NCBI GenBank assembly: GCA_040954595.2
Contig: CM082594.2
Location: 10,730,276-10,794,275, forward strand
Source of the DNA: Balanoglossus misakiensis
Lineage: Eukaryota > Animalia > Hemichordata
Length of the DNA stretch: 64,000 bases
Direction: 5' to 3'
Shown here: in pieces, positions 14,401-60,100 of the stretch
Layout: the number at the start of each line of letters is the position of its first letter
Numbering within the stretch: the first letter of the stretch is position 1
Translations under genes and position numbers: made by a program
The notes under the pieces: generated by a model
The model's database searches: none
What the model was told of the DNA's origin: nothing
Seen by the model: only the letters and a program-made list of their open reading frames with translations

Positions 14401-17400
14401 ACATTTATTTCGGAAACCAGCAGAAAACCAGAAATCATAATCATGCAGCCACTTATAACAGCAAGATACGACACTCTCCCAGCAATGTCTACAGCCTGGG
14501 TTGCAAGCAATGAAGTCGTGATGCAGTGTCTCTCAGATAAGAATCTAATGTGTGCATTATCTCAAGACATTTTGAAAAATCTACTCCTCACTGTAGACCG
14601 TGGAAATCACAAAACTGAGATGGCACCCTCAGGTCACACATCATATGTACCTGTGGGTACCTCTAAGTTACTGGAATAAAACTTGCATAAGTTTTTGCCC
14701 TGGAGACTCAAAGAAAGTATATCTTCGACAATGAGAAAAGTTGAAGGCACTTTTGTAAACTAGGCTAGATACTGAATATGATCACTTTCAGACTGTCAAA
14801 AAAAAAAAAAATTCCAGACAGAGAAAGTTTCTTGAAATCAAATATGAAAGATAATTTACAATATCCTCTTACAGTTTCTGGGCTGATAGCCTCTACATTA
14901 AGGCCAACATTTCCTGCCCAGGGTCAAAAAAGTGAGATTTTTTTTGACGTTTTCCCATCAAGTCTTTGAATTCAACTGAATTTCATGCCAATGTCCCTTG
15001 ATGACATAAGACAATCACAACAAAAATTGTTTTTATTTTCATTTCTGTTCTGTGCCTGCGTATCTGTTTGATTTACAAAATGGAGTGAGATCACGTACCA
15101 TGGGATCGTGTGGGGCTTGATGTATGTTGCCATAGCTACTTGTCGTATTACTACTTAACATTGCCGACGAGTAAGCGGAGGTGGACGGAGGCATGCCATT
15201 CGGGTGCCAGGCATCTGGACTGTTATGTGACCCATCTAAAACGAGAAGAGAGAGAAAAAAATACAAAGATGAGATGGTCCTAGAAAACTATATTTCTTGA
15301 GGGACATCCATTTGCATGGGTCTCCGTCTCTGCTAATTAAACATGCATACCCAACAGCTAGTGTTACCTTGATAGGCAGCGACCATCTGTCTACACTGAA
15401 CCGACCAATCAAATCGAACCCTCAGCACAAAAATAACACCCTTTTTCATGTTCGCTAGTAGTTCTGAGAAAACAGACCCTGTTTCTAATTTAACTTTCAT
15501 TTTCTCGTTCTTTGCCGTATAAAAGCTCAAACAGGGTAGCTAGCCTGAGTTCAAAAGATAGACGGTACCATCTGACAGGTATACCAGGCACATTTTACAC
15601 TTTTTCTAATTTGAAATTTACGAGATAGCAGATTGAGATGGCGAACTTCGAGATATTTTTAAATCCATCTGCCAGCAAAAACAAATACCATATTGCTCAA
15701 TGCTTTAATTGATCTTGTTTTTTATAGATACTTTTTTAAGATTCAATTTTGGAAGAGGTTTTCTTCATCGACAAGAAAGCTGCTGGTAGATAAGTGGCCC
15801 AGTCTGTTAGAATCTCTAAAAGTGATGGAACTTTTTACGTCCACGTTCTGTCTCTCTTTGCAGGAAGCAGATGTAAGAAAGGAAGAGAATTGTTGAATTT
15901 TCTAAACCAAAAATGTGATATCGAATAAATGGTGAATGCTATAACAATGAACAATATGGTGAAAGTGCAGTAACCATTTTTTATTCAAAGAATACTGAAT
16001 AACATTCACGGAAAGCAAAACCACAAAGGTCTAAGTTCACTTTCCTTTCCTGTTGTTGTTAATGCATGGTTGGCAACACTTTTTCCCCGTTGATTTTCAA
16101 CAACAGAAAATGTTTTGAATTTTCCCACTTACCCATAAATTCTGGATACATGCCGGGTGGTTTGGGTGATGTGTATCTGGGAGAATCCTGATTGTACGGA
16201 TCATATGAACCTGAAGGAGACTCCACCTGGAATAAAATAGAGGAAGGAGATATGTGTTAAAGGCACTGAGGATTTTCATCACATGAATGTCCGATGTCAG
16301 TTGTCTGTCCCAGTATTGTGCCTACCCTTCCCAACACAAACAAGCACCATTTCTGTCTCTATTCAGCAAACATTAACAAACAAGCCTCTTTTTTACAATC
16401 ACCCAGTAACTACCTGCTATGTCTGCGTCATTAATATTCTAGAACAAGGCGCCTCGCACCTCTGTTCAAATATTTACGGTACCAAACACTTTATCACCAG
16501 TAAAACTATCTCTTTTTTCTATCATTTCTGCTGGTATTTTCTATTATTATCTGAAAATGGAATTTGCTTTTGCTCTCTGTCTCTACAGTGATGATGTGTA
16601 CGCACACACATGGATTGTGCACAGCCTGGAATGTGAGAGCACCGACACAGTAAATTTTTCTACTGGTATGAGACAGAAATCAAAAAGGGGAATGGTGTTC
16701 ACTTTAAATAGTATGGGGTATGGGGTAATTAGACAATCTGATATTCTCGGACATATGAACAAAGTGGGCGGTTTACACACTGATATTTTTCTCAATCCCA
16801 GTTTTTATTGAAAGCACGTTCCCCTTTCTGCAATTTTTTACACATCCTTTGTACATCAGTCAGCATGGACGCATCATCTGTTGTGTCTGTCTGTCAGCAT
16901 TGTCCTTGACAACGCACACAAACATGTCCACTTCCCCTGCGACTGAAACACACCACCCGTCACGGTCGTGTTTTGGCGAAAAAGCTCCGGACCACATCTC
17001 TACAACCGATGCAGCCACAACAACAAACAAATTTGCCAGCTCTGATAGACAGAAGTATAAATGCTTTATTTGTAGCGCAATGATGGGGAAAGAAGATGAA
17101 TTCAAAGCACCAGTACAGCCAACCAGCCAAAAAAATTGAAGCAATAAAAAGACCTCCGACAGTGAAACACTCCAAAAATCATAAAGACAGCAAAGTAGTC
17201 CCTATTATGACTCCTTGCAGTGACCTCTGACCTCAGAGGAGACATGCTCCAATTACCAAGCAGTTGCACACTTGTCATTAATACACAATCACCATACTCA
17301 AGAATACTCAACCATTAACTTGATTTCCTTCTGGTCAAATGTTTAAATTCAAACATGCCAGCTTTCACACACTTTAGTGGAGACACGGTTCTGATATAAA

Positions 17401-20400: not shown

Positions 20401-23400
20401 ACAGTACACTTTCCCCGAAACAAGTTCAATTTCAGTTGGCCCAGACATATCTGATAAATGGCTGGGGACGGACAGACACACAATGCCCAATCTATTAGAC
20501 CCCCTCCCCTTACTTTATCCACAGGGACTAAAATGGACACTCTCACAGAGCATGGAGTATTGATGAAATTAGTCAACTGGAACGTTCACTGTAATTGTGA
20601 TGCTTTTAAAACCTCTAATGGAAATTATACCAACTCTAGCACGACAATGCTGTTTATGATATATACCCCTTCCTCCAGCAACCATAATAGTATTATGTCA
20701 GAAACTGTGTACAACACTGACAACAGAGCAACTGATGCCATTACTTCTGTTTGTAAGACTTGACTACAACAAAAATTTTGAAGTGGAGCCAATACATCTT
20801 GAATCTGAACATTCAGTACATCATAATCATAAACATTGATGATCATTTGATAAAAAACAAACACAAGCGAATTTTATCTTGGTATCTTTGTGATATCTAT
20901 TTGGATAATCGCTAGATGCATTTCCTTGAGACAAATGATCCCGATTGTCTACCCAGGCTGTTGCGTACCATGTTTTCACTGAAAATACAGCATGATTAAA
21001 ATTGAAAAATGTTCACTTTCGGACGAGGGGCAGGAAAACAGTAGAGCCATTATCAAAATAAAGAATTTGCATGGCAATATTTGTACAGATGTAACAGTAT
21101 CCTATCTGGAACTCAACCAACAATGTGATGACAAACATGGTAAGACTAAGAGACAGTTCTAAACAACCATCCATTTTTTTCTGCTTTCCATTACACTTCC
21201 ACCATTAACTGAAAGGCCGTCTTTGTCTGAATCACGAATCACTACAACAACAATAAAAAGCCAGAGTATGGGATTCAGCCATTACCATCTAATGCGCCTT
21301 AATTTAAAGCACTTATTTCTAATTTCCATCTCGTTTATGCTAATCACCAAGACAATATAATTGGGGCGTGCAGGAGGAAGAAAACATTACCATGGGATAT
21401 AATCCACTTTTGGTTTTGAAGACAACAAATGATCCTGTCCACTAAATGTTTCAAAGCTCCATTAAATTGTTTCAAATTAAGGCAGCTTAATTATAAACGA
21501 GATCATCTGCTAGGATTTTGTGCCTGCGTTGGGGGGGGGGGGGGGGGGGGGGGTTCAAACACAAGAAGTTCACAAACTTGATTTGTTTTTATAATTCTCC
21601 CCAACTTCCCTCAGATACACATTACTAATCAGACCAAACAAACTGCTGAATTCCATACACACCCTAATTGACAGCAAAGTGAAAATGTAAATAACACTGA
21701 CGAAAAATTTAAATGAAATTAATCACGAACTCGATTTCAAAGTGAACATACTATGCTCCTGTCATAGTTTGGTTTACAGTGCTATGTGCAGTAGATATCT
21801 GAAAGACTATGTACTTGTAACACTTAGAGATTCACTGATTCTGGTAGTTAATACCACCAAAAAAGTTTGAATTTAGTTCTGTACAATACTGTACAATGTC
21901 AGATAATTGATTCAATCCCCTCACGCATCATTGCCTTGGTGTAGTTCGCAGGCTTAGCTACATGTCCACCACGTGACAGGATAGTGACGCTGCATTTGAA
22001 ACGCTTTTTTTGTTGTATCTGTGGTAGATCCCCCCTCCTCTCATCTGAAACATTGCTACAACGAGATCAGCAGTGAATTTCCACAGCGATCACAGACAAT
22101 AGGGGCATTGGAGAGGACTACTGTACACACTGCAGTGTTTGACGTCAACAATAGAGTACTTCCAACAGGAGTTTCAGATCAATATTGACACTTCTTTGCC
22201 CGAGTGACTGGGCACTGTTTGATTCAGAACTATCTGGAGTGTGGGTCCTGATAACAAAGCTAGATAACACACTATTAATTTCAAATTAGGCACATTTAAC
22301 TGAACCAGGCAGAGAACAATTTAGATCGCATCTCTTGCAGATTGTACAAGTCAACAGACATAGCATCCCGAGGTTCAACTACTCGTGATAAATATTGAGA
22401 ATGGAAAAGGCAATGTGGGAGGAAAGAATCAGGCAAACAAAATGGATGGCTAGGAGAGATGACAGGGATGGATTTTCCGGCAACAGGTGGAGTGGTACTT
22501 ACAGGGTATGAGCCATTATGGAGATACATAACCGGGTTGTAATACGGTCTGTACGTACAGAACATTGGTGCTGCTTCACGATGCAAACGTCTTTTTAGAA
22601 TCAAAGCAACAGCTTCTTTCCTCGACCGACAAAGCTCAGATGACACACCGGATGACCTCTCACCGAAAATTTCAACGGGTCACTCGCTTCGCCAACCACC
22701 ACGCGCGCAGGACGAGACTTCCGCTACTTAGTTCGACCCCCGAAATCTGGGGCAATAAATTTTCCCTTTTAGTCGACTGGAGTCACCACTGGGGTATGTG
22801 TGCTTTTTATCTCGAGCCCATCAAAATCCTCAGTCCAGGAAATCTGACACCAGCATGGAAGGAGTCGCGGACAGACACGCCAGGCACAGAGACAGAGAAG
22901 CGAGACTATCCAGTAGCTAGTACCAGCTCCAGTATTCCTAATCGGTCACTAGACACACACAACCTCTCACTGTGGCTTACTCCAATGAAATCCCCGACCC
23001 AACTACACTCCCCATCACCATATGCCGCCAGCTACCACCCCTCTGTTCATTAATATTCATGAGCCTGGTAATTGGCTACTCTCTCTCTCTGTTTTGTTAA
23101 TTCAATTTGAAACAATAGAAGACACAAGCATATGCTAGCTGCTGTTACCAAAAATTCTCCCTGTACAATGAGAACTTGAATAGAAATGCATAATGTTGTT
23201 GTGATGTGTTGTGTTGGGGTAGGGTAGTAGACACCAAGTTCGCACTTTGGACGATAATTTCAGCTCGTGTGATTCTGATGATTAAGTTCAAAGTTTCCAC
23301 ATATTCCCTGAACTTCGTACAGCCAGCTCGGAATATCAATTTCACTTGCCGAAGTATTGAATGTCAAATAGGGTTTCACAAACACTCCAATGAGCCATGC

Positions 23401-26400: not shown

Positions 26401-29400
26401 ACATGTATTACATAACTGAATTTAATGTCAGAAATATCCAAATGATTGACAAGGCTCACTTTTCAATAAATAATGATGGCTCCACTGAAACACAGCACAC
26501 TGTGTCAATGACATTAGGGATACAGTTTCCAAGAGTTTCACCAGATCACGCACTTGTAAATTTTAATATATGACAGGCCAAAAATTCTGTCTGTCATCAC
26601 ATTCATCACTTCGAGATTTCAATCAACTCTTCCATTGGTATCTGCGACAAAGACCTATCCATATTTGGAGTCCACTGTAAACCTTTGACATATGAACCCT
26701 TCTATAAGATCTGTGTCTTGGTACACATGCACCACCAGTGACTGCATTTTATGGTTTCCGGACATGAAATGTGGGCAGTTGAGATTTACAAGCAAACTGG
26801 GAAGAACACATTTGGCCAGCACTGTAAACCTCTCTTCCCAATCACAACATGCTGGCGAAAGAACCAGTTTTCAGTTGTGTCTCTCACGTAGCGGGTGCAC
26901 GATGGTGCTTCCACACATGCACGTGCATCCATGTGCAACAGAACACTTATGTATACCACCAGATAACAAAACAACAAAGTACTTTTGAAACTTACAGTGC
27001 TTAGACCTCTGGCTCTTTTCGCTGCTGGACCTCCTGCAAAGAAACAGGGAAAAAATTGTCAATACTGATAAAAATCACATTAATATTTGCACATTAATAC
27101 CCACTCTCATCCAGAAAACACATTTTTTATTGTCCAGCATATTGACAACATAGTACACACAGCACATCACAACACCTGGGGTTTCCGTGTGTTAGGATAC
27201 ATGGGACACAGATTTTCATACCATTTTCATAACACTGGAAACTTTGAGCAATCTGGCAACAGACCATATTTTGGCCAAAACTTAGACACCATCATTACAA
27301 TCATTTCTACTACAGATATTTCAGAAAAGCATCATTGCTTGATTATGTGAACATCTAACCACATTCAATGGTCTGTGTTTGAAGTACCAAAACATCATCG
27401 TTACTCTATAACTCGTATTAATTCTGAACGGTGCCTTCATTTATGACGAGAGGAAAAATTGACAGATATGAAAAATGAGAACCAACTCCTAAAATCTGTC
27501 GGGGGCAACCTCTTCTTTGATGTCGACACATTCAGGAATTAAGGTGCCAAAAAAAATGTTTCTATAAGTTGGATTAAAGGCAAATCCTGTGGCTGCAATT
27601 GAAGGTACCCGATACCTTTGTGAAACCAAAGATGAATTTATGAATTCCTCGTGCAGAAAGCTCTCCTTTGGGCACTGCTGTATTGTCAGCTCGGCCGGCC
27701 AAAAACTCACTAACGAGCACAATCTCCCTGACTTAATTAGGGATCTTTCCTGAATAGAAAGCGCTGATTGGGAACGGTTGTGAAAGAGACACCATGCAGC
27801 AAAAGTGGAGAGGGAAATTGTCTGAACACTTCGTCGGAAACTGCAATGCTAACATTCACAAAAGGAGCAGCAAGCAATCAGGTGGGTGCCAGGTTTCAGA
27901 GGCAGACCAAAATGTTTTCATCGGATCTTCACTTGTCATTCTTAATAAAGGGACGCTCCTACTTTGCATTTTGTCGTGCTGAAATCAAATCCTCTTTTTT
28001 TGTTGAAGCGACACAAAATGAGACCTCCCCTTCTTTACGTTCTGCCGACACACGAGAAATTGATAAAATGTAACACTATCTATCATTTTCAGCCAAATCC
28101 CGCATTTTTGGAACTGATTAAAAAAGTTTAGCTTTCCCCATATCAGTCGCATGATATACTTTTGATGCAAGTACAACCTTGCACTGTTGTCAAATGACTT
28201 GGCTAATTTGTAGATTGGAAAATATCACTACAGGTGGCTGGTTCAGCCTTCCGGATCTAAGTTTGCCGCAAAATGCATTTTTCCAGAATTTTCCCTGGTT
28301 TTCCTGCAGCAGTTTACATTACACCTGGTTAATACGAGGCCCTCCAGTGAAATCTTAAACATTTAATGCATTAACTTATCGCTGAAAACATTGCTGCAAC
28401 ATCTTCAATGGGATGAAGCCCAGCATTTAATTTTGTTTTTCACTGTCACATCACAGAGTACCACTTCCAGGAACCGTACTACAACTTCAAAGGGGTTCAG
28501 TAACGATCTCTAAGATGAACAGGAAAAGTATTTCAACGTCATCATGGCAATGACACTCCCCCATCTCAGAAGATGACGACTGTTACACTTCAATAAACAT
28601 CATTTCCTTTTCAGCGATCATCGCAGAACTCATCAACAACTAACAAGCATCTAATTGATGTCTAAAGTGATAAATATCGCCTGAATTCAATTCTTTTTGT
28701 TTAATTCTTTAATGGCAACCTTCTTTAACCAACTGTCCAAAATACACCACCTGCTATAACGGGAAGATGAGATTTCTGAGTAATTAGTTTTACGATTGCT
28801 CCTTTTCATCAATGGCTTTGTGAGACGAGCGACAAAGGAAATCAGCAACAAATAAGGCTTTTATTTGCAAAAATCCGACGCAGACGCCATTTCTCATTTT
28901 ATTTTCCTGGTTGAGCTTAATATATGACGTGTGTTACCACGACAGTTATGGCAGTAATCTGTGTCGTTTCCTCTGCTGTGTAAATATCGGCCGATGTTAA
29001 ATCACCCACACTCTCCACACTCATCATGATGCCTCTAATATACTTTTCATCATTCTCGGCCAGTGTTCCTTGGAAATGGTTCTGTAAACATCGCGATTCC
29101 CCCCGTTTCGAGTGGCTATAAACGTTTCTTTTTCGCCCCATTCATCAACGGTTTGCCAACTGGAGAGCAAACAGATTAAGAGAATTTGACAATTTGCTCT
29201 TCCTATTCGGAACACCTGATGAAATCAATCGTCCGCACTGAGACGATACACATAATTTTCATCTGAGCAACCGTGCCTCTTATTTCGCTTGCCTTGTGGT
29301 CAGATTACAGTTTGCTGCGATGAAGATATTTAATTCCCGATGCCTCGTTGGACTTCTTGCAAAATTTACTCATTTTCTATAGGTTTTCTTGGAACCAGAA

Positions 29401-32400
29401 ACGAGCTTTTTACCCCATTCTAAATTACTACTTGAGAAAGTTTGAAATTCTCTTCAAAGGGCAGACTCCCGCAAGAATTACGATACCACTGAACTTTTCC
29501 ACTTCATAATGTCTTAAAATCCAAGGATATTTATGACAAAAGGCATAAATTTTTCAAATTTCATCTATTTATCAGATCCATGTAACTTGATCTCAGACAG
29601 AGGAAAGGGACTGTACTCATGTCAAAAGAGGAAAAAAAACTGATTACATCAAATTTTTACTTTTGTCTCCAAGCTCCGAATAGGAGTGATCTTTAGAGAA
29701 GACATTCTCCATGCAAGTTTCTCAGTGTTCCAGAAAAACTGAAGTTTATCATTACCGTATTAACTCAGAGGCTGCAATTTAATACACTGGCCCGGTCAGC
29801 TCATTCTTCCCAATAAAAAATAATCACGACTCATTTTCGGCGAATGAAAAGATACCGAAAATGTCACTGACGCACGTTCAGATGTCCCCGGAAAAGACTA
29901 CAGGACAGAATCTTATCTTCTCCAATTAATCATTTTCAATAATTCATTTATCAATTTTTAGTACACAACCGCAAGAGCACTTTTTAATCTTTGTGAAATG
30001 TGGCGCATCTTTGTGAGAGAACTTCATCATCTTGGCTTAAACTTGAGGGCCAACACCTACATCAGTCATTTTAATCTTCTTTCCATGAAGATTATCTCAT
30101 AATGTCTGACTTGATATCAAACTACAATCTTCAGCGTAGAAACTGAACGCGTCTTCAGGCTATGGTAACTAAGCTCTGGTGACAATTTATTTCTCTCTCG
30201 GTGTACATTTCCATTTTTCATTCAAGGATGACGTCTGCAAATTGGTCTTGGCTGGTTTTTATTTTGAAGTCAAGTTGATTTGATGGCCATTTCACAGTAG
30301 ACAGACAGAGAGACACAAACACACAAGCATTTGCATACATACACACACACACATACACCATGCACGTGCACACACGCACACACACACTGTGCAAGCAGTC
30401 ACGCACTTGCTATGATGCAGTTCAGTGGAATTCAGCTAATCTAAACTTACACAGTACGGACCATGTAAAAGTTGCAATGATGCTAAATTCGGCACAAACA
30501 GCTAATCGTTTCCTCCACCCCCTCGCTCTCAGCATTGGTTTTATTTATTTTTCACAAACAACAGTTGACGTGTGAGTTACCTCATCACACCTACATCTCA
30601 AGTGAGCGTGACGTCAGCAGTTGTTTTGTTGTTCTGAGCGCAGAGAGGTTGCAGTAAACTAAAACTCATGGTCAAATTTGACATCGCATGACGTTCACAC
30701 CGAAAAACCAGGCAAGGTACCCATCAATTATGAACCCAAGCAGTAAATTTCAAGTTGAATCTAAAATTAGATTTTTGGGGGGAACATAATTCACGAGGAT
30801 GAGTCATGTGACCATGAAGAGAATGCTACATTGCATGTTTTTCTGTTCACTATTTTTTCCTTCAAATTTTCAATAAAAAACACACAATCATGGATTCAAA
30901 TCAAGGTCTGAAACACTCTTGTATCATAAATGTCTGCTGAATACACTGAGGAAAAGTTACCATGGTGTTTCAGATAGAAAACTTGACCACTGATAGAAAA
31001 CTTGACTGTACATACCTGGTAATCTGGACGATTCAGGCACTATTGGACGTCGGGCGTTCGCGTTGTTGTAACCACCGTACGCATACGGGGAACCTCTTTT
31101 ACTGTGGGGCGAGACTGAATTCGGACTGGATAATGGCATTTCGCTACCCATAGACGACATACTAGGCTGCAATGAAATAATGGAAAACAACACAAAATAG
31201 TCAGATCCTATGGCATTGTTAGTGCACGACGGAAACTTTGATCGTTATCAGTAGGTGTATCTTTGATCTGGTTTTGTCACATTCAATTTAGATCATATCA
31301 TCTTTAATATCATAAAGGAGACAGGTCACAATGAACTTGTTGGGGTGGGGGTTTGTAAGAGCAGTAGAATTTTACATCTCAGTGGCTAGAGCCTAATCAC
31401 ACTGAAAGATATTTTAAAAGGGAACCAGTGATTATTTCTGAATCGTCACAATCTTCTTGTCAGCAGATATATTAAAGATAGCGCAAAATTTCCATGATAT
31501 TTCCAGATTAACTTATTCGTCCGACAATCCTCTCCGCTTCGGTTAAAATTACATAAACTTTTCAGTAAACTGCAGAAACAAATATGTCATCTGGCTGAAA
31601 CTAGAGCGTACCACTTTAACGAGTAGACGCATCTTTCCACAAGTCGAGCGGGGAAGAAATCCCGATTGATAAAATTTCAAAGGTGCCCTTTCAGAGGTCT
31701 TCAACTCCTAACTGATCCGTTAAAAAGAAACAAACCGGGGCAACACTGTACACATGGGCGAAATATTACCCCTCACCATAAATAAACAACGGTAGCTACA
31801 AGCTTTTCGGCAGTTCACAAACATTCCACCGGCGCAAGATTTCTGTATTACGCTACCTACACAGAGAGATCGGATAAAAGACGCCGCGGTCCCACAGACA
31901 CAAGAATGATTTAAGAACTCCGCATTGATCGCCCGATGACATATCAACTGCGTCTTTCTTTTCGGAAGGGAGATGAAAACAAAAAAGTAGCTGTATTATA
32001 TTTTGACACTTAAACGGTGTACGCAGAGCACTGTAAACAAGTCGCGAATGACTTCAAACCCTTTTCAAAGTGATTGCCGCCAAGTTGGTGTAATCCGTTT
32101 ACGGATTTACCCAAGTGCCGGAAATGCTTTGCTAAGCCCGTCGGTCTGTTTTACGCTCGAACTTTTAAATACAATAAAAATGTACTAGTAATTTTGTGCT
32201 AATTTTCACCAATTACTGTACTGATTTCAAAGTACATGTATCTGTTAATTGAAACTAATTAGTGCACTGATTTCAAAGTACATGTTAATCTGCACTAATT
32301 ACTCAAAGTATACAAATTCACACAAGTCTATCAAAGGGTTTTAACATGTGACTCAAGACAATAAGCGTATTTAACAATATCATTATCAGAAAGTGTCCGT

Positions 32401-35400
32401 CAGTAGTTTTGATCATCATCTAGTCATATTCACAATTTTAAAGTACAAAACATAGAGACACTGGTACTCCAAACTTGCAAGAATGCCTTGCATTGTGAAA
32501 CCAAGATGCAAGATTTGACACAACGATCTTTAGCATGTCCCACAGATCAATGCAGAACACTACAACTGACACTGTGCTAGCAAGCGAGTGCAGTGGCAAA
32601 AAGCAGAGTCAGCTGAAGGGTGAAACAGAGAATGAGAAGTGAAGTGTTTCACGGGGAAAAAGACATGTGAGAATGATAGATAATATTCAGTTTATGAAAT
32701 TTTGAGAAGTGAGAAAACGGTTTGTAGGATGCGAAGTATAAAGTGCGGGAGTGGAAATCCGAGATGAAAACTCGGAGAAAATTTGAGATGAAAACTGAGA
32801 AAGATGATTAGCCTTACTGGCATGTAATAGTAGATCCGAGGGCACAACCAAAGCATATTGGGATACACGGCCATGGTGCGGGGAAAACAATGCGACGATC
32901 AGATGACTGGATCGATCAAGGCGTGATACGAAGAGAATCGTTGTCGCTGTCGTCGTCACACTAAAGCACTTTTGATTCAGCGAGTTGCGTTGAATGAGTG
33001 CCAGAGTTGTCATACAGAGACACTTTATGCGATATCAATAGTGTTTCATCGGTTCTGTCAGACACAAAAATCACAGCGTATTGGGAGAGGGGGGGGGACC
33101 TGCTTGCTACCAATGATTTCCAAGCAAAATGACATTCACAAAAACCAATTAATCAATGCAACGGCAAATTGGCTAACGGTCACTTGACCACAAGCGCAAA
33201 CAGAACAAAAAAAAAACCTTCCACACATGAACATCCTCTAAACGCAAGAAACATCTCTCGTGATCAATGACCACGACAATTTCCTCTTTGCTTTAGATCA
33301 CTTTGATGGGCAACTAAGTCTTGGACGGAATTGAAGCAATTGAGTTACATTGACTTCTCCGATCTGATCTCATTAACAATCAAAAGCTATAAACGTTCGC
33401 CCATCTGAGCCACTGCTATTGACACAGGTTTGTCTCCAGCATCATACTCTTCTCTCGCCTCGTGTCCTGGCAACCAGACGTGAAGCATCGCTGGTATCTA
33501 AGCGCCGTGAATGTCTGTCATTTCCTCTCTTGAGAGAAATTTCCTCTCCTCGCTGCAACTTTTCTATCAAGCTATATCTCAATAATTACTTTCTCCTTTG
33601 CACCCTAATGGTCAGATTCAATTCCCTTTCAAGCGCTATCCACCATAAAAAATAACCATCCAACTATCCCCGCCAATCCACTATAGAAGTAACAGGTAGC
33701 CCTGAATGAAACCAAAGCAGAAAAAGCTTGGCTGATTTCACAAAACCCAGAATAAATCCAAGATCATATTTTCATTCGGCAATCTTTTGTCCAACAGCCG
33801 CAACCCGACAACGCTTGAAAAACATCTGCCTATCACATTGGAAATTCCTTCTAAAGGTCAAACGAGCACGACTACCAAACTACTACCATTTTTCATTTTT
33901 CACCACGTAAAATATGCCAACCATTTCAAAAATGCAAGTTTTCATTTGTGTGAGTGTGTGACTTGGTCAACTTTGAAACCATAACAACTTTAGTGCGTGT
34001 GCTACTGCGTGACTCAAGAGAACCCCTTCTCGATCAGAATGTGGTAGTCAATATTCAACCGTTCTGAAAAGTGGGAGATTCTAACACATAGATGCTAACT
34101 TGACACCTCCAAACCAATTCAACATTTTAGTAACTGCTTACTATACCATTCACTGAAGTACGTTAAACACCTGTGAAATTGCCCGTTGCCAAGCCTGTTG
34201 CATGCTTGTGGCAAGCCTGTTCAAAGCTGAAACTACAGATGTTTGCCTCACCTGTTGAAGTATAAAATCAAATCTGAACGCACTATTTTTAACCACCATT
34301 CTCATAGTTTTATCGTGTTATCCCCAAACACTCTAAAAATCAAACTTCTACACATCTTTTTGTCGCAATGTTGATGATTTTTTCTGAAGATGTTTCACTG
34401 TGTATGTACTCATCATATAATGTTGTTCAAGCATAAAGAGTATATAGAAACTAAAGCATGTCTCACTGTAAAATACAACATCGACATCCACCAACGTGAA
34501 AAAAATCTGATTTAACTATTCTTGTTTGGTAAATTCTACAAAACAAAGTCATCAATTTCATCAATGGTAAACAATTGTTGGATCCAGGATTTTTTTGGTT
34601 TCAATCATCTAAATCTCAAATTTAACTATGCTATGCTACACTGATTTAAAGCAAACATGCACACCATGACTGTATCTGCTCTTTACAATAGATGAAATGA
34701 CCCAGTATGACAAATAAAAAAAGATATGAAAAATTAACCCCCCAAATTCCCTTCTCCCCTTTTTGCACTTACTTCTAATGTTGCCAAAAGCTGTAGGTGG
34801 GTAGAAATTGCCATGAAATCCTCGCGTTTCTCAGATTGGCGATGATGTCACGTTTTTTTTACCACAAACCGAACCGGACGCTGATATACACACAAAAAAC
34901 TAGTCCTACACTACAGAATAAGCATGATTGCCAGATCATTTGGTTACTATGCATATGTATGGGATTAGCACTGGTTGCAAGGTCTGCCCACCATGACATA
35001 TAATCCACAATATAAATCAAACAAACGTTTGCCATTTCTAACATACCGGACAAACAATCGAAAAACTGACTGACACTGATTTGGGGTGCGTGGGGGAGGG
35101 ACACAATTTCTATAGGGAACTTTTCTGGATTCTTTTTTTTTAAATTATCAAATTCTATCAGAAATTTTCACCACAGTAATTATAATCTGCAGAATGATGA
35201 GGAGTTAATTTTTAGTTTGAAGCTATACAAGGTTTTCTTTTTGTTAAAATGGACTACTGGTTTAGTTGAACAAGTGTGTGGGTCTTTTTCACAGACAAAT
35301 TTTTGGAGTTGTCATTATTTTTTAAATTTTCTTCTGGTCTACAAGTGGTCAGACCCACATTATTGAGAGGAACTACAGCCAGTTTACAATGTTTTAAATT

Positions 35401-38400
35401 TAATTAGTATTCTATATTAATAATTTTTTTAAATCAAAGCTTTTCTCATTACACCCACCAAAAAATAGGGAAAAATGAACATAAATATTCAGTGAGAATT
35501 ACACGTTCAAGAAGAAAAAAAAACATCATTCAGAATTGTGTGACATGAAAGTTTTCTAAAGATTCCCGTTGTAAAATTATCACTCTGGGTTTTCTTTCTA
35601 GGCAGCTGAGCACACAAGTCCTGAAATTGTGGGCAGGTCAGTCCACTGCCTACCACAATTACTGCTGTGAGACGACATTCAACGCAATGTTTGCTTTTTG
35701 CTAAAATGAATTGCCGGCAAATTAATTGCTAAATGTCATGATATTTAAAGTCTCAGTAATGTAGCTGGTGTTCTTTGTTAAGTGAAAAAGACCGATCACA
35801 ATACTGGAAATTTAATGTAATAGCTAATAGCGCCCAACAGCAATTTGACATAATAAGCTCCACTTGATGAATGAGAAACAAGTAACTGAATTTGTATGGC
35901 CTCTTTGTGATCCTGTACCATCTGTTACGCTGGCAATAATTTTTTCCACCAATCCGGCTTCAGACAAATGGTACACTCGTTGTACGCCCCCCAAAATATG
36001 ATTCTGACCCAATACTTAGTGCATTGCTTCTCTCTTCCTGTGCTTTTTGTCTCATTGTTTTATTTTGTTTTAATAACAGACATCAATTGTTGCCTGTCTA
36101 TATAAGAGCTTAGTCACAGGTGGTTTCAAAGACGATTCTTTTCTTGGCGTTGACTCAACCGAAAAATATTGGTTTTGTTATCTGCACAAAAAAATGGTCC
36201 AATAACTGTGGCTGTAATTAATTCATGTAGTGATAATAACGTAACGCTTTATCATCTATGCATAAATCTACAACTTTACTTATGGCATAAACTCACACCA
36301 GTGCAAGTAAGATACCAAATGAAAAAGTTCATCATCATTTTGAAACTTCTATTTGGTTGTAATCTTGGACATTGTTTTATTTTTGCTCTGTACATCAAGA
36401 GGATCAGGGAAAGGGTTCCCTGAGTCACACACAATAATGTTATGTTACTGTATTCCTATAGCATACAAGACCTATGTATGTCATATACTTCATTCTGCTT
36501 TTACTGAAGAAAATGTCATGCACAAATATGTCTACCAAGGGAAGGTCATGTGACTATGGTTACACGAATTTAAGCGGTCTTTCCAAATTCTAAAAACTTG
36601 AAGACAACACGCATCTGAATAACCTTTTAAGAAGCTAGCTATCTCGGTATGAGAAAACTAGGTTCCCACCATTAAATTTTGTACAATTTGCATAAAATAA
36701 ATACTGATGAGGGATGGATTTTGTCTGTACAATGTGACTACAATGGCTTCATTGTTATCAAGTGTTTCTTCCGCCAATGCTAGACACGATGACATGAATC
36801 ACAGAATGCAAACTCACTAACCTTTTCTCTGACCCTATTTTACACTGACAACTCCGTGATTAGTTTTTCATCAGTTTCATAATTCCGGCAATTTTACAAA
36901 ATGACTCTTTAATTTAGGGAGTCACATCCTAATTTCACTTCCCTTTGTTGTCTGCCAATGAGTCAGGGCTTTGAATCAGACACGGTAAAAGGCCCGTAAA
37001 CCCAGCCATGCAGATGACGACCGACTAAAAAATTGAATTTATCGAGGCTCATTTTCAGATCTGATTTTATCTGTCCCGTATCTATAGCAACACCTCTGGT
37101 AGATAGCTCCATCACCAGTGGGAAACGGAAATATACACCGATTGTCAAAATGGAATAATAACACTCATCGCAAAGTCAAAGTTATTCCAGAATAACATGC
37201 ATGAGATAATATCTAGTTCCATCCTCCCAACAATAATATTTAGTGTTTTAGACTTCCTTTCTCCCACCCTCTTTCGCCTCACCCACTTATATACTAGTCC
37301 CACCCACACCTTTGAAACAACGGAATTGGAATGGTAAAACTGTTGAAATACTTCAATCTAGAATGTCAGGCCTCACTTGGCACTGAGCTGTGACACTTTG
37401 CACTAACACACAGCTAAAATACATAACATTGTCATCTAAACACGGTACAAAATCTGCTGAGACTTCAACTATCAACAGTATGACCTCATCTCATCACAGG
37501 TATAGAATCTGATATATTTGAACAATTCCCAAACTGCTGTCCTTCAACTGACACCAGTTTCGGCGGGAAAAGTAGAAACTCCTCTCACCTGATTGGGTGG
37601 CATTGCAGGTTCTCTGGGCATAGATGAATAAGGCATCGGGTAAGACTTTTCCATTGGTTTCGCTGAAAAAGATAAAAACAGACAATTTATAAATAAATGG
37701 AATTTGACAAATCATCTCAGAGTTTTCTCAATGAAGTTGACAATCTAAAGAAAATAAACAAATACTTGACAATTTGATCGGAGAGCCGGGACAACGTAAA
37801 GCAATGCCATATCACATCACTAGAGGGCGCTGCTCAGCGTACCCGCATCCAACGATGAAGTCAAGATTCAATTTGTATGCAGAGAACGTCGCCAAATGTC
37901 TTATCGTGGCTAATATGAACATGCTATTAGACGGCATGAAGACTGATTTACATGTGAAAAGCACTTGTCACTCTTTTTATATTCTACAAGGGAAGTCCCT
38001 CTCACACAAAGCGAACAGCATTGAAATGACCAGATATGCTCTCAGAATATCAAAAGTTCTTTTTTTCGGGAGAAGAAAAAAAAGGAGATGGCTCAAAATG
38101 TAGAGTGCACTATCATATCTCTGGCAGACATCTCCTAATTTTACAACATTAATCCACTGGGTGGATTTCTGTTACCTGAATGCATGTATCAAGAAATATT
38201 GATTTTTGGGGAAGCTAAGAACCGCCAAACAAACCAGAAAAGTAGAACACCACCGTAGGAGAGGCAGAAAAGACAAGGTCATATTCCAATATTTAACACA
38301 CAAGGGAGATTAAGCATGGGTGTTAAATTTCTGTCACAGAATAAAATGAAAATAATACTCCCTTAATTAAAAAGACGAGGAAATACATTTTTGTAGAATT

Positions 38401-51790: not shown

Positions 51791-54700
51791 AGAGAATAAT
51801 TATGTTTCCTCTCAAATCTCCCTTGTTTGTCATTTGACACAACTGCGTGTAATTAATCTTGGCAATGTTTCTGTAAAAACTATAACGAGCAAGAAAAATT
51901 ACTGTCCTTCCTGTGCCGTGTTGCTATCGCTGTCAATTGGTGACAGCACGCAGTTTGTCACTTGCACTGTTTATTGTGCCGTAATGGTCTACTTTTCCAT
52001 AATGGCATCGATTTATGACTTCATTGTTCATAAAATGCATTTGCTATGTTTCATTCAGATTAGCCATGATACCCTTAGAACTGGATTCAGTTACCACCTT
52101 CAATCCACACGGGTTATTGATGGGAATTTTTAAAATTTCACACCGTATCTGTGGATTTTTTTTCTCTCTCGAAGAGTTGCATCTGTATAAATTGGCCTCT
52201 TTCTCAAATGATTTGTATTTCTAATGACAAGTTCTCCCCAGTAGGTCTGTTCAACCAATACTTTATTGTCATTCATCATGGCAATTTCAATGTGAAATGC
52301 TCGTAGATTTACAACAGTATTTTCTTGATGAAAATCAGACACTGATGGTACCGGTACAGGTCAACACTCAGGGTATGCTGTTCAGCAGAGAGGCTGTGGC
52401 GCTCGGTTGAAAACTCTGTGCGAATTTTATCAGAAGAGCCGGACAGCAAACCAACACATGCACAGGTATATTCACAGCCATCCGTTGTACCATCTGACAA
52501 ATTGCAAATTGACCATCAACCTACACACCAATCAATAAGTGTACTCAGTACTAAACTCTCTCTCTCTCTTGCCAATAAAAAAAGACTTGGCAACAGTGTC
52601 CACTCCATCAACTGTTGCACCATCTACCCCACCACACTTAATCAACAGCAGAGCTGATGGAGCATATTTCTCACACATTACTCTCCACACGACATGTAGA
52701 GGCACGCACGACACAATGCCATCACAAAAATATATCTCCAATCAATTCAGGATCTTCTCACTTCACCAATCACTTCAGGCATTTCCTGCACACAGGCCAG
52801 GAAGCACTTCTATCTTCTCCCCGCACAGACAACCACTTACGATCATCACAAAAAACACACACACAATACAAACTGCGCTGTAGAACTTCAAAACGTGGTT
52901 CTGATGGCGCACAAAGACACTCGTGGAAGAAAACACCGCGTCAATCATAAATGCCAGAGATAACTCTCCCTGAAACCGGGACACAATTCCCATAATGTCA
53001 CTCGTCATATTTCCTCTGACGCATTGAAAAATAACAGGGGTTGTCTGAATTACGACTGTCCACGGTCACTTTCTGAGAGCACTTTATAAAAATCATCATG
53101 CCCAACATTTGCATTTCAGAGGCAACACGAATACCAATTTGGATGAGTGACGGTATTTGAGAGAGCGCACAACCTTGTCTCACTGCTGGTCACCTTCTGT
53201 ACAGGTGGATTGTGAAAATGGCAATGCGGAAGGGCACGAAATACTGCAATTGCCCAGAAACAGCGACTGGTGAAACCACAGACGCGACAAGCGCCGCATG
53301 CAATTCGCATGAGATAATGCAATACTTACCCATGAATGACGACATACTACTATTATTGGAGTTCATGTCATAGGGATTGGACATGTTGTTATTAAGCATT
53401 CCTCTGTCGTTCATGTGATCGTTATATGATGAACCCTCGTACCCCTGAAACAAAAAAGATGACAGAAATTACACGTTAAACTTTGCACTATGTATACCTT
53501 TCTTTCTTTCTACATGTATTTTAGTGTTAACAACTTGTTTCTGTCCCATGCACATTTCATAATTGCTGCCACAGTGATATTATTCAAAACTAAGTAATCT
53601 AAATATGAATTTCTTGCAAACGGCATGTAATAAAACTATCACTATGCTCCCTGGCAGGAATCCACTCGCCCTCCTGCATTGGGCGAATAATTGCCGGCCC
53701 TCATGCCCACCAGTTTCATACACAGACTGTGATATATCACATGGCCATAATCAACATTACGATAATGGATTTCCCTAGCTGTATTTACAAAACATGCATC
53801 ACGCTGGCTGCTTGTATGAGACGATATGACACCATGTTAATCTTGAAGATAATGGTACACACTGATCCTTGGGACACTCAAATTGTCTGATACCATGGAA
53901 CAGTGTAATAAATTAGAGTTCCCCCCTACCAGGTCTGCTTTTTTATGTTTTGCCCTGGTGGTTATTTTTTTTATCAAGGGGTGTGTTGGCCATGTACACC
54001 AAAGAGATAGAAAGTTACATTTCAAGAGGAACATTGACAATCACTTTGTTTTAAAATGTTCTAAATCTCCCACGTCAATGCTGCATTACAAATTTTCAAT
54101 TAATTCTCTGAAACTACTCATTCTGCAAACCAGCTTTCAAGGTTAATAGGCCAAAGTTACTTGTACAGGTTGCACACAAAAATAACCCTTGAAATGACAC
54201 TTTAAGTGAAATACCCTTTTTCCTGGCTATGTCTACTGAGTGAATGAGAGCCAATAAAATTGACCATATTCATAAAATATGTAAATATCTTGCCTGATGT
54301 ACGATAATAACCCAGAGATGTATGCTAATCGGCTTTGCATTTAACACCCGCCCCCATCTCTCCAAGAGATCATCTTTACCGCAAAACTTCTCTAGGGAAC
54401 TGAATGGTCATTACCACTTATAGTGACCTTGTAAAACTTTATGTATATTCCGTTACCAAAAGAGAAATTTTGCACACAAAAATATTCACGGACCAAGCAA
54501 ACCCCGTTAAGTGACAGGGTAACTTTTATGAGTGGAAAATCCTGAAAGATGTTATGTTTAAATGACCACTTTCACAAATTTACACAAGTCGTTTTGATTC
54601 ATGACTTGTCTTTAATGCCCGTATGTGAGTTGCATATTTCATGCCGATACTTCCCAAGTCGGATATTGATTTTTTTTTTGTCTGAGAGGCCTTCCCAACA

Positions 54701-57700: not shown

Positions 57701-60100
57701 CAATAGCAATACGGCTACGTTCAAATTGATGGGTCCAGACAAAGAGAGCTATTGTCTATCCCCCTCGCAAAAAAAAATGCTCAAATGCACTTTGCTCACT
57801 TTTATACAAGTTTACTTGCGCAGCTATCTATTCAATTATGGCACTGATCAAAATTCCTGGGCATCAGATCTTGTCAATAAGAAAAGAGGGCCAATCGAGT
57901 CATGTTGTTGTCTGTATCTCGATTTTAACTGTCACAGAATCTACAGTTTTCAAGCACTGTGTGAATCAATAGATACTTCATCAACAAATATAATTTTACA
58001 CAACTCCACTCTACACACAAGCTGAAACGTTTTACAGTAAAAAATGTCCACCATGACCCTCACACAAAAGGATTCTGGATATTTTACCCACAATGCAATG
58101 CAGTTTCATGAGGCGCTTACCCAGAAAAAATTAGCATATTCCGGTTATTTTTGATTCATAACGGTTAAGTATCGCATCAGCTTCCTAGCCAAAGTCGGAG
58201 GAAAGATGGCGTTTATTCTTTTTTCATAAACTCTAACCAGTGACACAATTCCATGATATGGTCATAAACTCGCAAATAAAGACCGTAAAACCTCAAGTCT
58301 GCCGCACTAATTTTCGATATTAACCAGGGCCATTTGCACTAAGTGACACTTACAGCGTCCGAGCAATGCTCACATTCTTTACGTCTCAGACATAAAATTT
58401 TATGTTCAATATTAGTTACTGTATTAAAAGGCAGCTATAAGAAGGCATCCACCGAAAACAAGAAACACTGGCCTCGGTGACACTGTGACACCAACATCTA
58501 ATGCAACACTTCTCCACCTCTCATGTTTCAAAATCCTGGCTCCACACTTGCTGTTTGTTTAAGACATAATTTTAAAAGTGCAATATTTGTAACGGTTAGC
58601 GTTTACTAGGGAGGTGTTGCGCAGGAAGGAGAAGTCGTAACTTTTACTGCCAGAATCCGAGCTGGCTTCTCATTGGCCGAGCTGCACTTACATATTACAG
58701 CCACATTTTGACGGGAGTGGAATTATTGTGGAGTCTCCACCTTAGATGTTAGGTGACGTGTTTGTCATATCACAAAATGGATGTCAAACGGCGCAAATCT
58801 TCAGCACGAATCTTCTCATTCTAGAACGTCAGAGTTTGGCAGAAAGGTGCCGTGTCACTCACTGGAAAAACACTTTCAAGGGACCTAGAAACTGCCCTGG
58901 TGTCTTAAGCTTCAGGCATCCTCAGCAAAAGTGGTTAATTTACTACTTTTATTAAGACTTTATGGTTCTACCACATGAAAATGGATAGGATTTGCGCAAA
59001 ACATTACACCTCCAATGCGAGAGGCTTTTCACAGAGTTACTTAAAACATTAGGAACTGTTGCTTGCCAAAGCTCCGTTTGACCCCATCGCTTGTAGGCAA
59101 AACAGGATAATAAAACTCTGACGTAATATTTGACGCAAAGAACTACATCGTGGAGTTATGTGTGTTACACGCCTACAAGCACGTTGTCAGTAGTTCTCTG
59201 ACAAACCACGACTCACAAGTTAGGGGCCATGGATAATTAGAACATACACACAACAAACAAAATTTAATGTACATCCCCTGCCCCATTACAAATAATTTCG
59301 TTCAGCAGGCATGTTTCAATTATCCACGGCCCCTCGCATAGTGAACTCAAAGACACAAATAACTTCATGCATGCATGCATGCATGCATGCATGAGGACTG
59401 ACTAAATTTACGTCTAAAGGTGGCAACTTTGGCCCCCTGTTAAATCAGCCTCACAACGAAGAGTAGCCATTTGACCACTGGACGTCAGGCTACCCCCTCA
59501 GGCAACAACTTGGTGAAACAAATTTCTGGTGGTGACTTGGCTCAAACAAAGCACTAAATCTAGCTAAAGCAACACACTTTCTATGTTTGACATTATTTGC
59601 GTTAAACTGTTGGGTTTCAGTAGATTTGCAAACAAATTTCGAACTGGCAAAATAGCAAAAGATTGATTTAGTTGTATAGTTGGTGATTTCTTTGTCTTGA
59701 GCCCTGCAAGGAATATGTTGAAGCTGCTCGACAAAAACTGGGTTAATAACAGGAGTTTTGTTGCCAAACACTATTGGTCAGACAACAGCCTTGTGACAGA
59801 TGAAATATAGTGGCTGGAAGAATGATTAATGATGGACATCCCATGCTGCTTAGATTTCCTCCGTTGTTAACTCTTTATCGGATCTGAGTATCGCAACCTC
59901 TTCAAAAAATTGTCGCAAAGATTGGGACATATGTGGACAGGAACTGAGTGTGATAAGACGGACAGACAGTCCTGGAAAAATGTTTTAAGGCAGTTAAGAG
60001 AGAAAAGGAGAAAAATTCCTGCAATGACCTACCCTTGAATCATAACTAGGACTTGGTTGACTACTTGAGCTCCATGAACTTCGACCTTCTTCTACCATTC
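2197..60100 (-). CDS. TCF12: E-protein (class I bHLH transcription factor, TCF12/TCF4/TCF3/daughterless family), partial multi-exon CDS: join of 60100-60033, 53444-53330, 37662-37589, 31166-31016, 27033-26996, 16226-16133, 15235-15099, 13841-13685, 13539-13436, 6430-6352, 4890-4817, 2424-2197
   Basis: 12 GT-AG exons totalling 1319 nt whose phases chain without a frameshift or stop. The translation contains E-protein motifs in the expected order. The symbol means closest resemblance (TCF12-like); it may be the single pro-orthologue of TCF3/4/12. Confidence 0.95.
4817..4890 (-). CDS. TCF12: E-protein exon, (A)[24 protein letters not shown]
   Basis: Acceptor tttcaactttccag followed by a second CAG, donor CTG|gtgagt, 74 nt, phase 1 to 0. 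Resembles TCF12 [22 protein letters not shown]. Confidence 0.94.
6239..6309. mobile_element. Miniature TTAA-flanked foldback element (Kolobok-like relic)
   Basis: TTAA-AGG...CCT-TTAA ends with imperfect ~15-bp inverted repeats and an internal 12-bp palindrome AGCAGCGCTGCT (6275-6286). Confidence 0.4.
6352..6430 (-). CDS. TCF12: E-protein exon, [26 protein letters not shown]
   Basis: Acceptor tgtatatttcag, donor CAG|gtgagt, 79 nt, phase 0 to 1. Nearly identical to TCF12 [22 protein letters not shown]. Confidence 0.97.
13436..13539 (-). CDS. TCF12: E-protein exon, (G)[34 protein letters not shown] (AD3 region)
   Basis: Acceptor tttatatgttcaccag, donor TCT|gtaagt, 104 nt, phase 1 to 0. [13 protein letters not shown] is a hallmark E-protein motif. 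Confidence 0.96.
13685..13841 (-). CDS. TCF12: E-protein exon, [52 protein letters not shown]
   Basis: Acceptor ggttttcttattcag, donor G|gtaagt, 157 nt, phase 0 to 1. Contains the conserved SLPPMSSF motif. Confidence 0.95.
15099..15235 (-). CDS. TCF12: E-protein exon, (D)[45 protein letters not shown]
   Basis: Acceptor ttctctctcttctcgttttag, donor ATG|gtacgt, 137 nt, phase 1 to 0. Resembles TCF12 DGTHNSSDLWSSSNGM. Confidence 0.93.
16133..16226 (-). CDS. TCF12: E-protein exon, [31 protein letters not shown]
   Basis: Acceptor cctctattttattccag, donor G|gtaagt, 94 nt, phase 0 to 1. Resembles TCF12 [24 protein letters not shown]. Confidence 0.93.
17487..17511. repeat. Poly-G run (25 nt)
   Basis: Read directly. 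Confidence 0.9.
19534..19552. repeat. (CT)n microsatellite
   Basis: Read directly. Confidence 0.85.
20241..20533 (+). mobile_element. Non-autonomous Helentron-associated (HINE/DINE-1-like) element
   Basis: Starts ACAAG, then hairpin TCATT-gtc-AATGA (20246-20258). Subterminal inverted repeat TAGTCCCTG (20261-20269) / CAGGGACTA (20522-20530), internal GACGGACAGACACA microsatellite-like tract, ends in an A run. Confidence 0.6.
21531..21553. repeat. Poly-G run (23 nt)
   Basis: Read directly. Confidence 0.9.
22503..22565 (-). CDS. TCF12: Alternative first coding exon, Alt domain homologue, [21 protein letters not shown]
   Basis: ATG at 22565, 63 nt, consensus donor CCT|gtaagt, phase 0 matching the exon at 16226. 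Similar to the HEBAlt/TCF4-A N-terminus MYCAY...NSLMYYYNGK. Confidence 0.8.
22566..23100 (-). promoter_or_regulatory. Putative internal promoter and 5' UTR of the Alt isoform
   Basis: Locally GC/CpG-enriched stretch immediately upstream of the Alt ATG, with a CCAAT (ATTGG on + near 23071) and a short (CT)n tract. The TSS cannot be located from sequence. Confidence 0.45.
26996..27033 (-). CDS. TCF12: E-protein 38-nt exon with putative NLS, (G)[12 protein letters not shown]
   Basis: Acceptor tttttccctgtttctttgcag, donor ACT|gtaagt, phase 1 to 0. Fills the position of the vertebrate TKKVRKVPPGLPSS NLS exon. Confidence 0.88.
30301..30388. repeat. Imperfect (CA)-rich low-complexity tract
   Basis: Read directly: interrupted CA/GA/CG dinucleotide runs. 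Confidence 0.75.
31016..31166 (-). CDS. TCF12: E-protein exon, [50 protein letters not shown]
   Basis: Acceptor ccattatttcattgcag, donor CAG|gtatgt, 151 nt, phase 0 to 1. Resembles TCF4 [23 protein letters not shown]. Confidence 0.92.
32818..32874 (-). CDS. Candidate second alternative first coding exon, [19 protein letters not shown]
   Basis: ATG in strong Kozak context (caccATGG), 57 nt, donor CCA|gtaagg, phase 0 compatible with the exon at 31166. Preceded by a CpG-rich stretch. Confidence 0.5.
37589..37662 (-). CDS. TCF12: E-protein exon, (A)[24 protein letters not shown]
   Basis: Strong acceptor tgtttttatctttttcag, donor CAG|gtgaga, 74 nt. Phase 1 to 0 is exactly what is needed between the flanking exons. 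Resembles TCF4 SKTERGSYSSYGRES. Confidence 0.88.
39203..39222. repeat. (TC)10 microsatellite
   Basis: Read directly. Confidence 0.85.
51757..51788. repeat. (AC)16 microsatellite
   Basis: Read directly. Confidence 0.95.
53330..53444 (-). CDS. TCF12: E-protein exon, [38 protein letters not shown]
   Basis: Acceptor cttttttgtttcag, donor G|gtaagt, 115 nt, phase 0 to 1. Resembles TCF12 GFTDSPHYSDHLNDSRL. Confidence 0.92.
59222..59334. mobile_element. MITE, PIF/Harbinger (Tourist)-like
   Basis: 24-bp terminal inverted repeats AGGGGCCATGGATAATTAGAACAT / ATGTTTCAATTATCCACGGCCCCT with 3 mismatches. TTA on the left of GGGGCC; the right target site is degenerate. Confidence 0.6.
59366..59393. repeat. 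(CATG)7 self-complementary microsatellite
   Basis: Read directly. Confidence 0.95.
60033..60100 (-). CDS. TCF12: E-protein exon, (G)[22 protein letters not shown]
   Basis: Acceptor tctctccttctctcgcag, donor AGG|gtaggt, 68 nt, phase 1 to 0. Resembles TCF12 [16 protein letters not shown]. Confidence 0.93.

Follow-up and report, generated by a model that had tools for sequence, protein, structure and literature searches.

The closest described systems are the Alt forms of vertebrate E-proteins. HEBAlt, as described in PMC9385190, has its own transcription start site, lacks AD1 and is expressed more narrowly. Human TCF4-A, which lacks both AD1 and the NLS, activates more weakly than the long form does, and its dimer partner carries it into or out of the nucleus (PMC3137626). 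The Alt domain is reported as conserved across vertebrates (PMC3346973), and in the mouse a 23-residue Alt exon is preceded by the exon that ends after KKVRK and followed by the one that starts with VYAPS (supplement of PMC9385190). Phosphorylation of a YYY motif raises the activity of HEBAlt in a JAK-dependent manner, and in E2-2Alt the last tyrosine is phosphorylated (PMC9385190).

Outside vertebrates, Schrankel et al. (2016; Dev Biol 416:149, PMID 27265865) describe an alternative form of a sea urchin E-protein, with the word “conserved” in the title. That title stands in the reference lists of PMC6433000, PMC5660111, PMC6783274, PMC6494969 and PMC5073156; the first of these, citing Schrankel, argues from non-gnathostome loci for an ancestral gene built like HEB/E2-2, and PMC6783274 cites the work as an example of isoforms arising from alternative transcription. 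The earlier note on the locus analysed here had taken the Alt system to be described in vertebrates only, and an acorn worm Alt exon to be new on that account; this claim fails, given the sea urchin form and the presence of the hemichordate exon in RefSeq models of two species. The sea urchin form is reportedly named SpE-Alt, and the abstract of that work is said to make the Alt form older than vertebrates and to place it in the bilaterian ancestor. The supplement of the 2016 paper may already list hemichordate or protostome (annelid) Alt exons. Literature searches for HEBAlt in sea urchin and for TCF4-A in invertebrates gave no match, and we do not claim that the hemichordate exon is unpublished.

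The window, by which we mean the whole 64,000-nt stretch of acorn worm DNA analysed here, contains thirteen exons, from 60100 to 2197, that together form 464 stop-free codons (Table 1). The encoded residues are identical to those of Ptychodera flava X1 at 420 positions, of Glandiceps at 351 and of Saccoglossus at 312; the same residues show 177-201 identities to three echinoderms and 118-171 to three vertebrates. The exon at 2424-2197 matches three hemichordate “transcription factor 12-like” proteins (E 9e-31 to 4e-9). Judged by these alignments, the host gene is the acorn worm orthologue of the E-protein genes (TCF3/4/12; class I bHLH), near the P. flava record but not identical to it, and the earlier note was right to call it an invertebrate gene. 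The bHLH domain (PF00010) is present in the relatives’ proteins, and the bHLH exons of the window gene lie beyond its left end. Likewise, AD1, recognizable by its LDFS motif, is found in the relatives’ first exons, and the AD1 exon lies outside the window. Basic clusters in the exons at 31166-31016 and 27033-26996 are inferred to be the equivalent of the bipartite NLS encoded by TCF4 exons 8-9.

Table 1. Features of the E-protein gene in the window, with positions counted along the window and strand as given.
Feature	Position	Strand	Remarks
Alt first exon, coding part	22503..22565	-	63 nt, 21 codons, ATG start; homologous peptides in P0024 and P0037
Phase-0 splice donor gtaagt of Alt exon	22497..22502	-	Rank 1 of 806 intron GT sites
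Inferred 5' UTR and internal promoter region of Alt exon	22566..23000	-	CpG richness; without acceptor up to 22900
First exon common to canonical and Alt forms (VESPSG...; counterpart of vertebrate VYAPS exon)	16133..16226	-	
Last canonical-only exon, basic cluster AKRAR (second half of bipartite NLS-like region)	26996..27033	-	NLS role inferred from PMC3137626
Canonical exon with first basic cluster (RR) of NLS-like region	31016..31166	-	
Canonical-only exon	37589..37662	-	
Canonical-only exon	53330..53444	-	
Most 5' canonical exon found in window	60033..60100	-	
Seven further common exons	15235-15099, 13841-13685, 13539-13436, 6430-6352, 4887-4817, 4491-4414 (cassette), 2424-2197	-	
Second conserved alternative first exon	34773..34814	-	Phase-0 gtaagt; joins 31166 in frame

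Two other variable parts of the gene deserve mention. The exon at 4414-4491 (minus strand) is a 78-nt phase-0 cassette preceding the MEERLDDA exon, and is present in 9 of the 15 listed P. flava isoforms versus none of 13 in Glandiceps. At the same place, 8 of 11 Saccoglossus isoforms carry a 20-residue duplicate of the LDDAI helix; no such duplicate was found at 4816 to 2425 in the window. The position of the cassette fits what we take to be the “ankyrin-like” insert of HEB. Alternative first exons, for their part, come in at least three kinds in hemichordates. The one at 34773-34814 shares 12 of 14 residues with P. flava isoform X16 and has a donor that scores just 2.2 on the gene’s donor matrix; a form starting there would lack AD1 and retain the NLS-like region. 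Another, found in all three acorn worm species (P0004, P0020 and P0033), starts with MC, ends with [YF]YYR, and joins the exon equivalent to that at 60100; two of the species have a tyrosine triplet in it. We rejected this exon as an Alt homologue because it does not beat shuffles and uses a much earlier junction. No counterpart of it turned up in the window, and that exon may be located upstream of 64000.

The Alt exon lies within a 10,769-nt intron (26995-16227) as an ATG-initiated open frame that reads, at its end on the minus strand, CCT followed by gtaagt. The acceptor side at 16226 reads ag followed by GTGGAG, and joining the two exons gives 337 stop-free codons, reaching as far as the final exon detected in the window. 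The exon that precedes the host intron (27033-26996) ends in phase 0, so that the Alt and canonical donors both fit the acceptor at 16226. On a matrix built from the gene’s 13 other donors, which score 6.7-12.0 when scored in-sample, the Alt donor scores 9.3, the highest value for any GT in the intron. The intron holds 19 GTRAG sites, three of which close an ATG-initiated phase-0 frame, and with 11 isoforms as queries only the Alt exon among the three matched a relative’s protein. The exon and in-frame join described in the earlier note are thereby borne out. The 500 nt at 22501-23000 contain 27 CpG, the joint highest count among 255 windows of this size (median 11), and have a GC content of 0.50 versus a median of 0.40; this CpG peak is not specific to the Alt exon, as two intronic windows near 31,500-32,250 equal its count.

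The earlier note had named conservation in related species as a check on the exon. The Alt peptide is present, with 15 identities in each case, in annotated isoforms of two other acorn worms: Glandiceps talaboti X13 (P0024, XP_077993389.1), one of 13 listed isoforms, and Saccoglossus kowalevskii X9 (P0037, XP_006812119.1), one of 11. In both relatives the peptide directly adjoins the V[DE]SPSG exon, which is the same junction as in the window. With the window as a tblastn database, P0024 and P0037 matched 22565-22503 with E values of 5e-12 and 3e-10, respectively. Both records are predicted RefSeq models named only “transcription factor 12-like isoform”, and both start 18-19 residues before the conserved Met, at a Met that is absent from the window; likeness between the window and its relatives begins at the Alt Met. 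When the Glandiceps Alt region was used in a word-index search, five candidates came up, and the three hemichordate clusters were the only matches among them; Pfam has no family for the Alt peptide.

DNA contigs of X1 and X2, which come from one sample, span the Alt exon at 22038-23243 (26 other letters) and 22402-23243 (6 other letters). At 21688-21850, both have 24 other letters in place of 161 nt; this allele difference falls within the intron, some 650 nt downstream of the Alt donor. A stretch at about 24707-24767 matches the end of a very high-copy repeat (contig depths of 66,883 and 136,674 in the bin), with loose ends that read ...AAAGGGACAAAGTC, and is probably a transposon end.

We compared the Alt exon with a set of seven vertebrate Alt domains, from hagfish and six teleosts, taken from the best 150 of 1,258 hits of a profile search; for the mouse Alt sequence, outside the scored set, the comparison was visual only. 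As candidates we scored 1,225 ATG-to-GT phase-0 first exons from both strands of the window by their mean global alignment score. The Alt exon ranked first with a score of 26.1 (mean -10.1, sd 6.1), and the best candidate from another ATG reached 15.7. When the Alt peptide was shuffled, 14 of 5,000 shuffles reached its score. Shuffle tests on the three hemichordate Alt peptides gave 3, 8 and 17 of 2,000 (8 for Glandiceps, 17 for Saccoglossus), and as a control, four other hemichordate alternative first exons failed to beat their shuffles (278-814 of 2,000). In a local search of the window’s six frames with a profile HMM of the seven vertebrate domains, the Alt exon was not among the top 8 matches, the best of which had an E value of 0.42; the vertebrate link therefore rests on the start-anchored global comparison and on position. 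The window peptide shares 8-10 identical residues with vertebrate Alt domains when gaps are allowed, and two separate blocks, M-[FY]-C-x-Y at the start and M-Y-x-x-N close to the end, align in order and at the right spacing. Overall, the acorn worm peptide appears to be related to the vertebrate Alt domain by homology, as the earlier note had proposed.

Two annelid models begin in a related way at this junction. In models from two tubeworms, Lamellibrachia (P0069) and Ridgeia (P0257), a peptide beginning MFCTTYPYY... precedes a VYSP-type exon. Eight residues of these starts are identical to the window Alt peptide, and 60 of 2,000 shuffles reach the score of the Lamellibrachia peptide; from their sequence we regard both models as Alt candidates. 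In echinoderms, none of 52 listed cluster members starts M-[FY]-C within the first 80 residues, and at this junction three of the 52 carry a different N-terminus. A horseshoe crab N-terminus (P0234) that is Alt-like by look was rejected after 824 of 2,000 shuffles reached its score. The scallop Mizuhopecten (P0277, XP_021366278.1) has a tyrosine-rich PYYRVYRPYPNMY directly before its VYPP exon, a possible mollusc counterpart of the Alt peptide.

Could the frame at 22503-22565 be an internal cassette exon, or an exon that has fallen into disuse in this species? None of the 15 P. flava isoforms listed, out of 18 in the cluster, carries the Alt exon, and 38 open codons, none of them Met, precede the Alt ATG; the closest upstream ATG, at 22821, is out of frame. 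Against this, no acceptor-like AG stands within 400 nt: none in 22503-22900 scores above 1.7, while the gene’s real acceptors score 10.1-19.7, in keeping with a first exon rather than a cassette. Moreover, the ATG, frame and donor are all intact, and conservation begins at the Met, so that we consider either a cassette or a disused exon exceedingly unlikely.

A conserved hemichordate first exon might also have arisen independently in the same intron, its likeness to vertebrate Alt domains being convergence between short Tyr/Met-rich peptides. This gene family does use many alternative first exons, among them those behind the 18 N-termini described for human TCF4 (PMC3137626) and the several kinds in hemichordates noted above, and the local HMM test was negative. 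In addition, the N-termini of Lytechinus X10/X11 and of the crinoid Antedon X6 at this junction are unlike the vertebrate Alt domain, with 1,243 and 733 of 2,000 shuffles, respectively, reaching their scores. Convergence does not readily account for two blocks that align in order at the right spacing, for the small numbers of shuffles that match the hemichordate peptides, or for the annelid start at the same junction, and we judge an independent origin to be very improbable.

We are thus strongly confident that the 63-base frame with its strong donor is the Alt first exon of the acorn worm E-protein gene, which would give a shorter protein from a predicted internal promoter; that the exon is real is highly probable. 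In the working we propose, this promoter would initiate a transcript within the host intron of the present species, skipping all upstream exons. Splicing across the predicted 22503-to-16226 junction would then give a protein with a 21-residue tyrosine-rich start. Having lost all upstream exons, this protein would lack AD1 and the basic NLS-like region (31166-31016 and 27033-26996), and would retain the activation region further downstream as well as the bHLH domain. By analogy with HEBAlt and TCF4-A, it would most likely be a weaker activator that is regulated separately and relies on its dimer partner to enter the nucleus. Such a form could allow particular cells to switch their E-protein state with the DNA-binding domain unchanged. 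The promoter switch and the partner-dependent behaviour are likely to be shared with vertebrates.

The tyrosine motifs of the Alt peptide follow another pattern. As the earlier note had observed, the triplet aligned to the vertebrate YYY reads YLH in the window, with a YY pair upstream. Across the three acorn worms the triplet reads YLH, YLH and, in Saccoglossus, YLQ, and it is YM in annelids; the vertebrate YYY is present in hagfish and in three of the six teleost sequences. Of the motif that marks the JAK-regulated vertebrate Alt domain, acorn worms keep only the first tyrosine. The third tyrosine, the one phosphorylated in E2-2Alt, is therefore absent, and the vertebrate phospho-switch as described is probably not shared by acorn worms. 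The YY pair at residues 8-9 is found in all four aligned invertebrate peptides and in none of the seven vertebrate ones, and is kept in the three hemichordates and in both annelid models. Speculatively, and with more doubt than conviction, we suggest that the acorn worm and annelid peptides keep an ancestral bilaterian Alt domain in which the YY pair of the first half served as a tyrosine-kinase input, and that the second half acquired the YYY/JAK switch on the vertebrate stem, hagfish already having it. If this is true, and if it is absent from the 2016 paper, an ancestral YY would date the cytokine-sensing switch of HEBAlt and offer a natural swap experiment.

The exon is a hemichordate member of the Alt class. 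It provides a clear hemichordate example, together with two annelid candidates, for the published idea that the canonical/Alt two-promoter design predates vertebrates and T cells, and leaves the main published conclusion unchanged. What is new may be small: a clear bridge in sequence that links annelids and hemichordates with vertebrates, and a shift of the tyrosine cluster. The peptide is useful for asking which Alt residues are ancient and when the YYY phospho-switch arose. Compared with the sea urchin Alt form, which also comes from a single invertebrate deuterostome orthologue of HEB/E2-2/E2A, the acorn worm exon belongs to another phylum, and the Lytechinus N-terminus at this junction is far less vertebrate-Alt-like than the acorn worm peptide. 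Compared with vertebrates, the Alt exon has the same place in the window as in the mouse, after the NLS exon and before the VYAPS-type exon, which is the position that the earlier note had recognized. The acorn worm Alt form is predicted from its exon positions to lose AD1 and the NLS region, like HEBAlt and TCF4-A. Its peptide has 21 residues versus 22-25 in vertebrate HEBAlt (TCF12), TCF4-A and E2-2Alt, and its YY pair occupies the place of the G/P-rich linker of the vertebrate domain.
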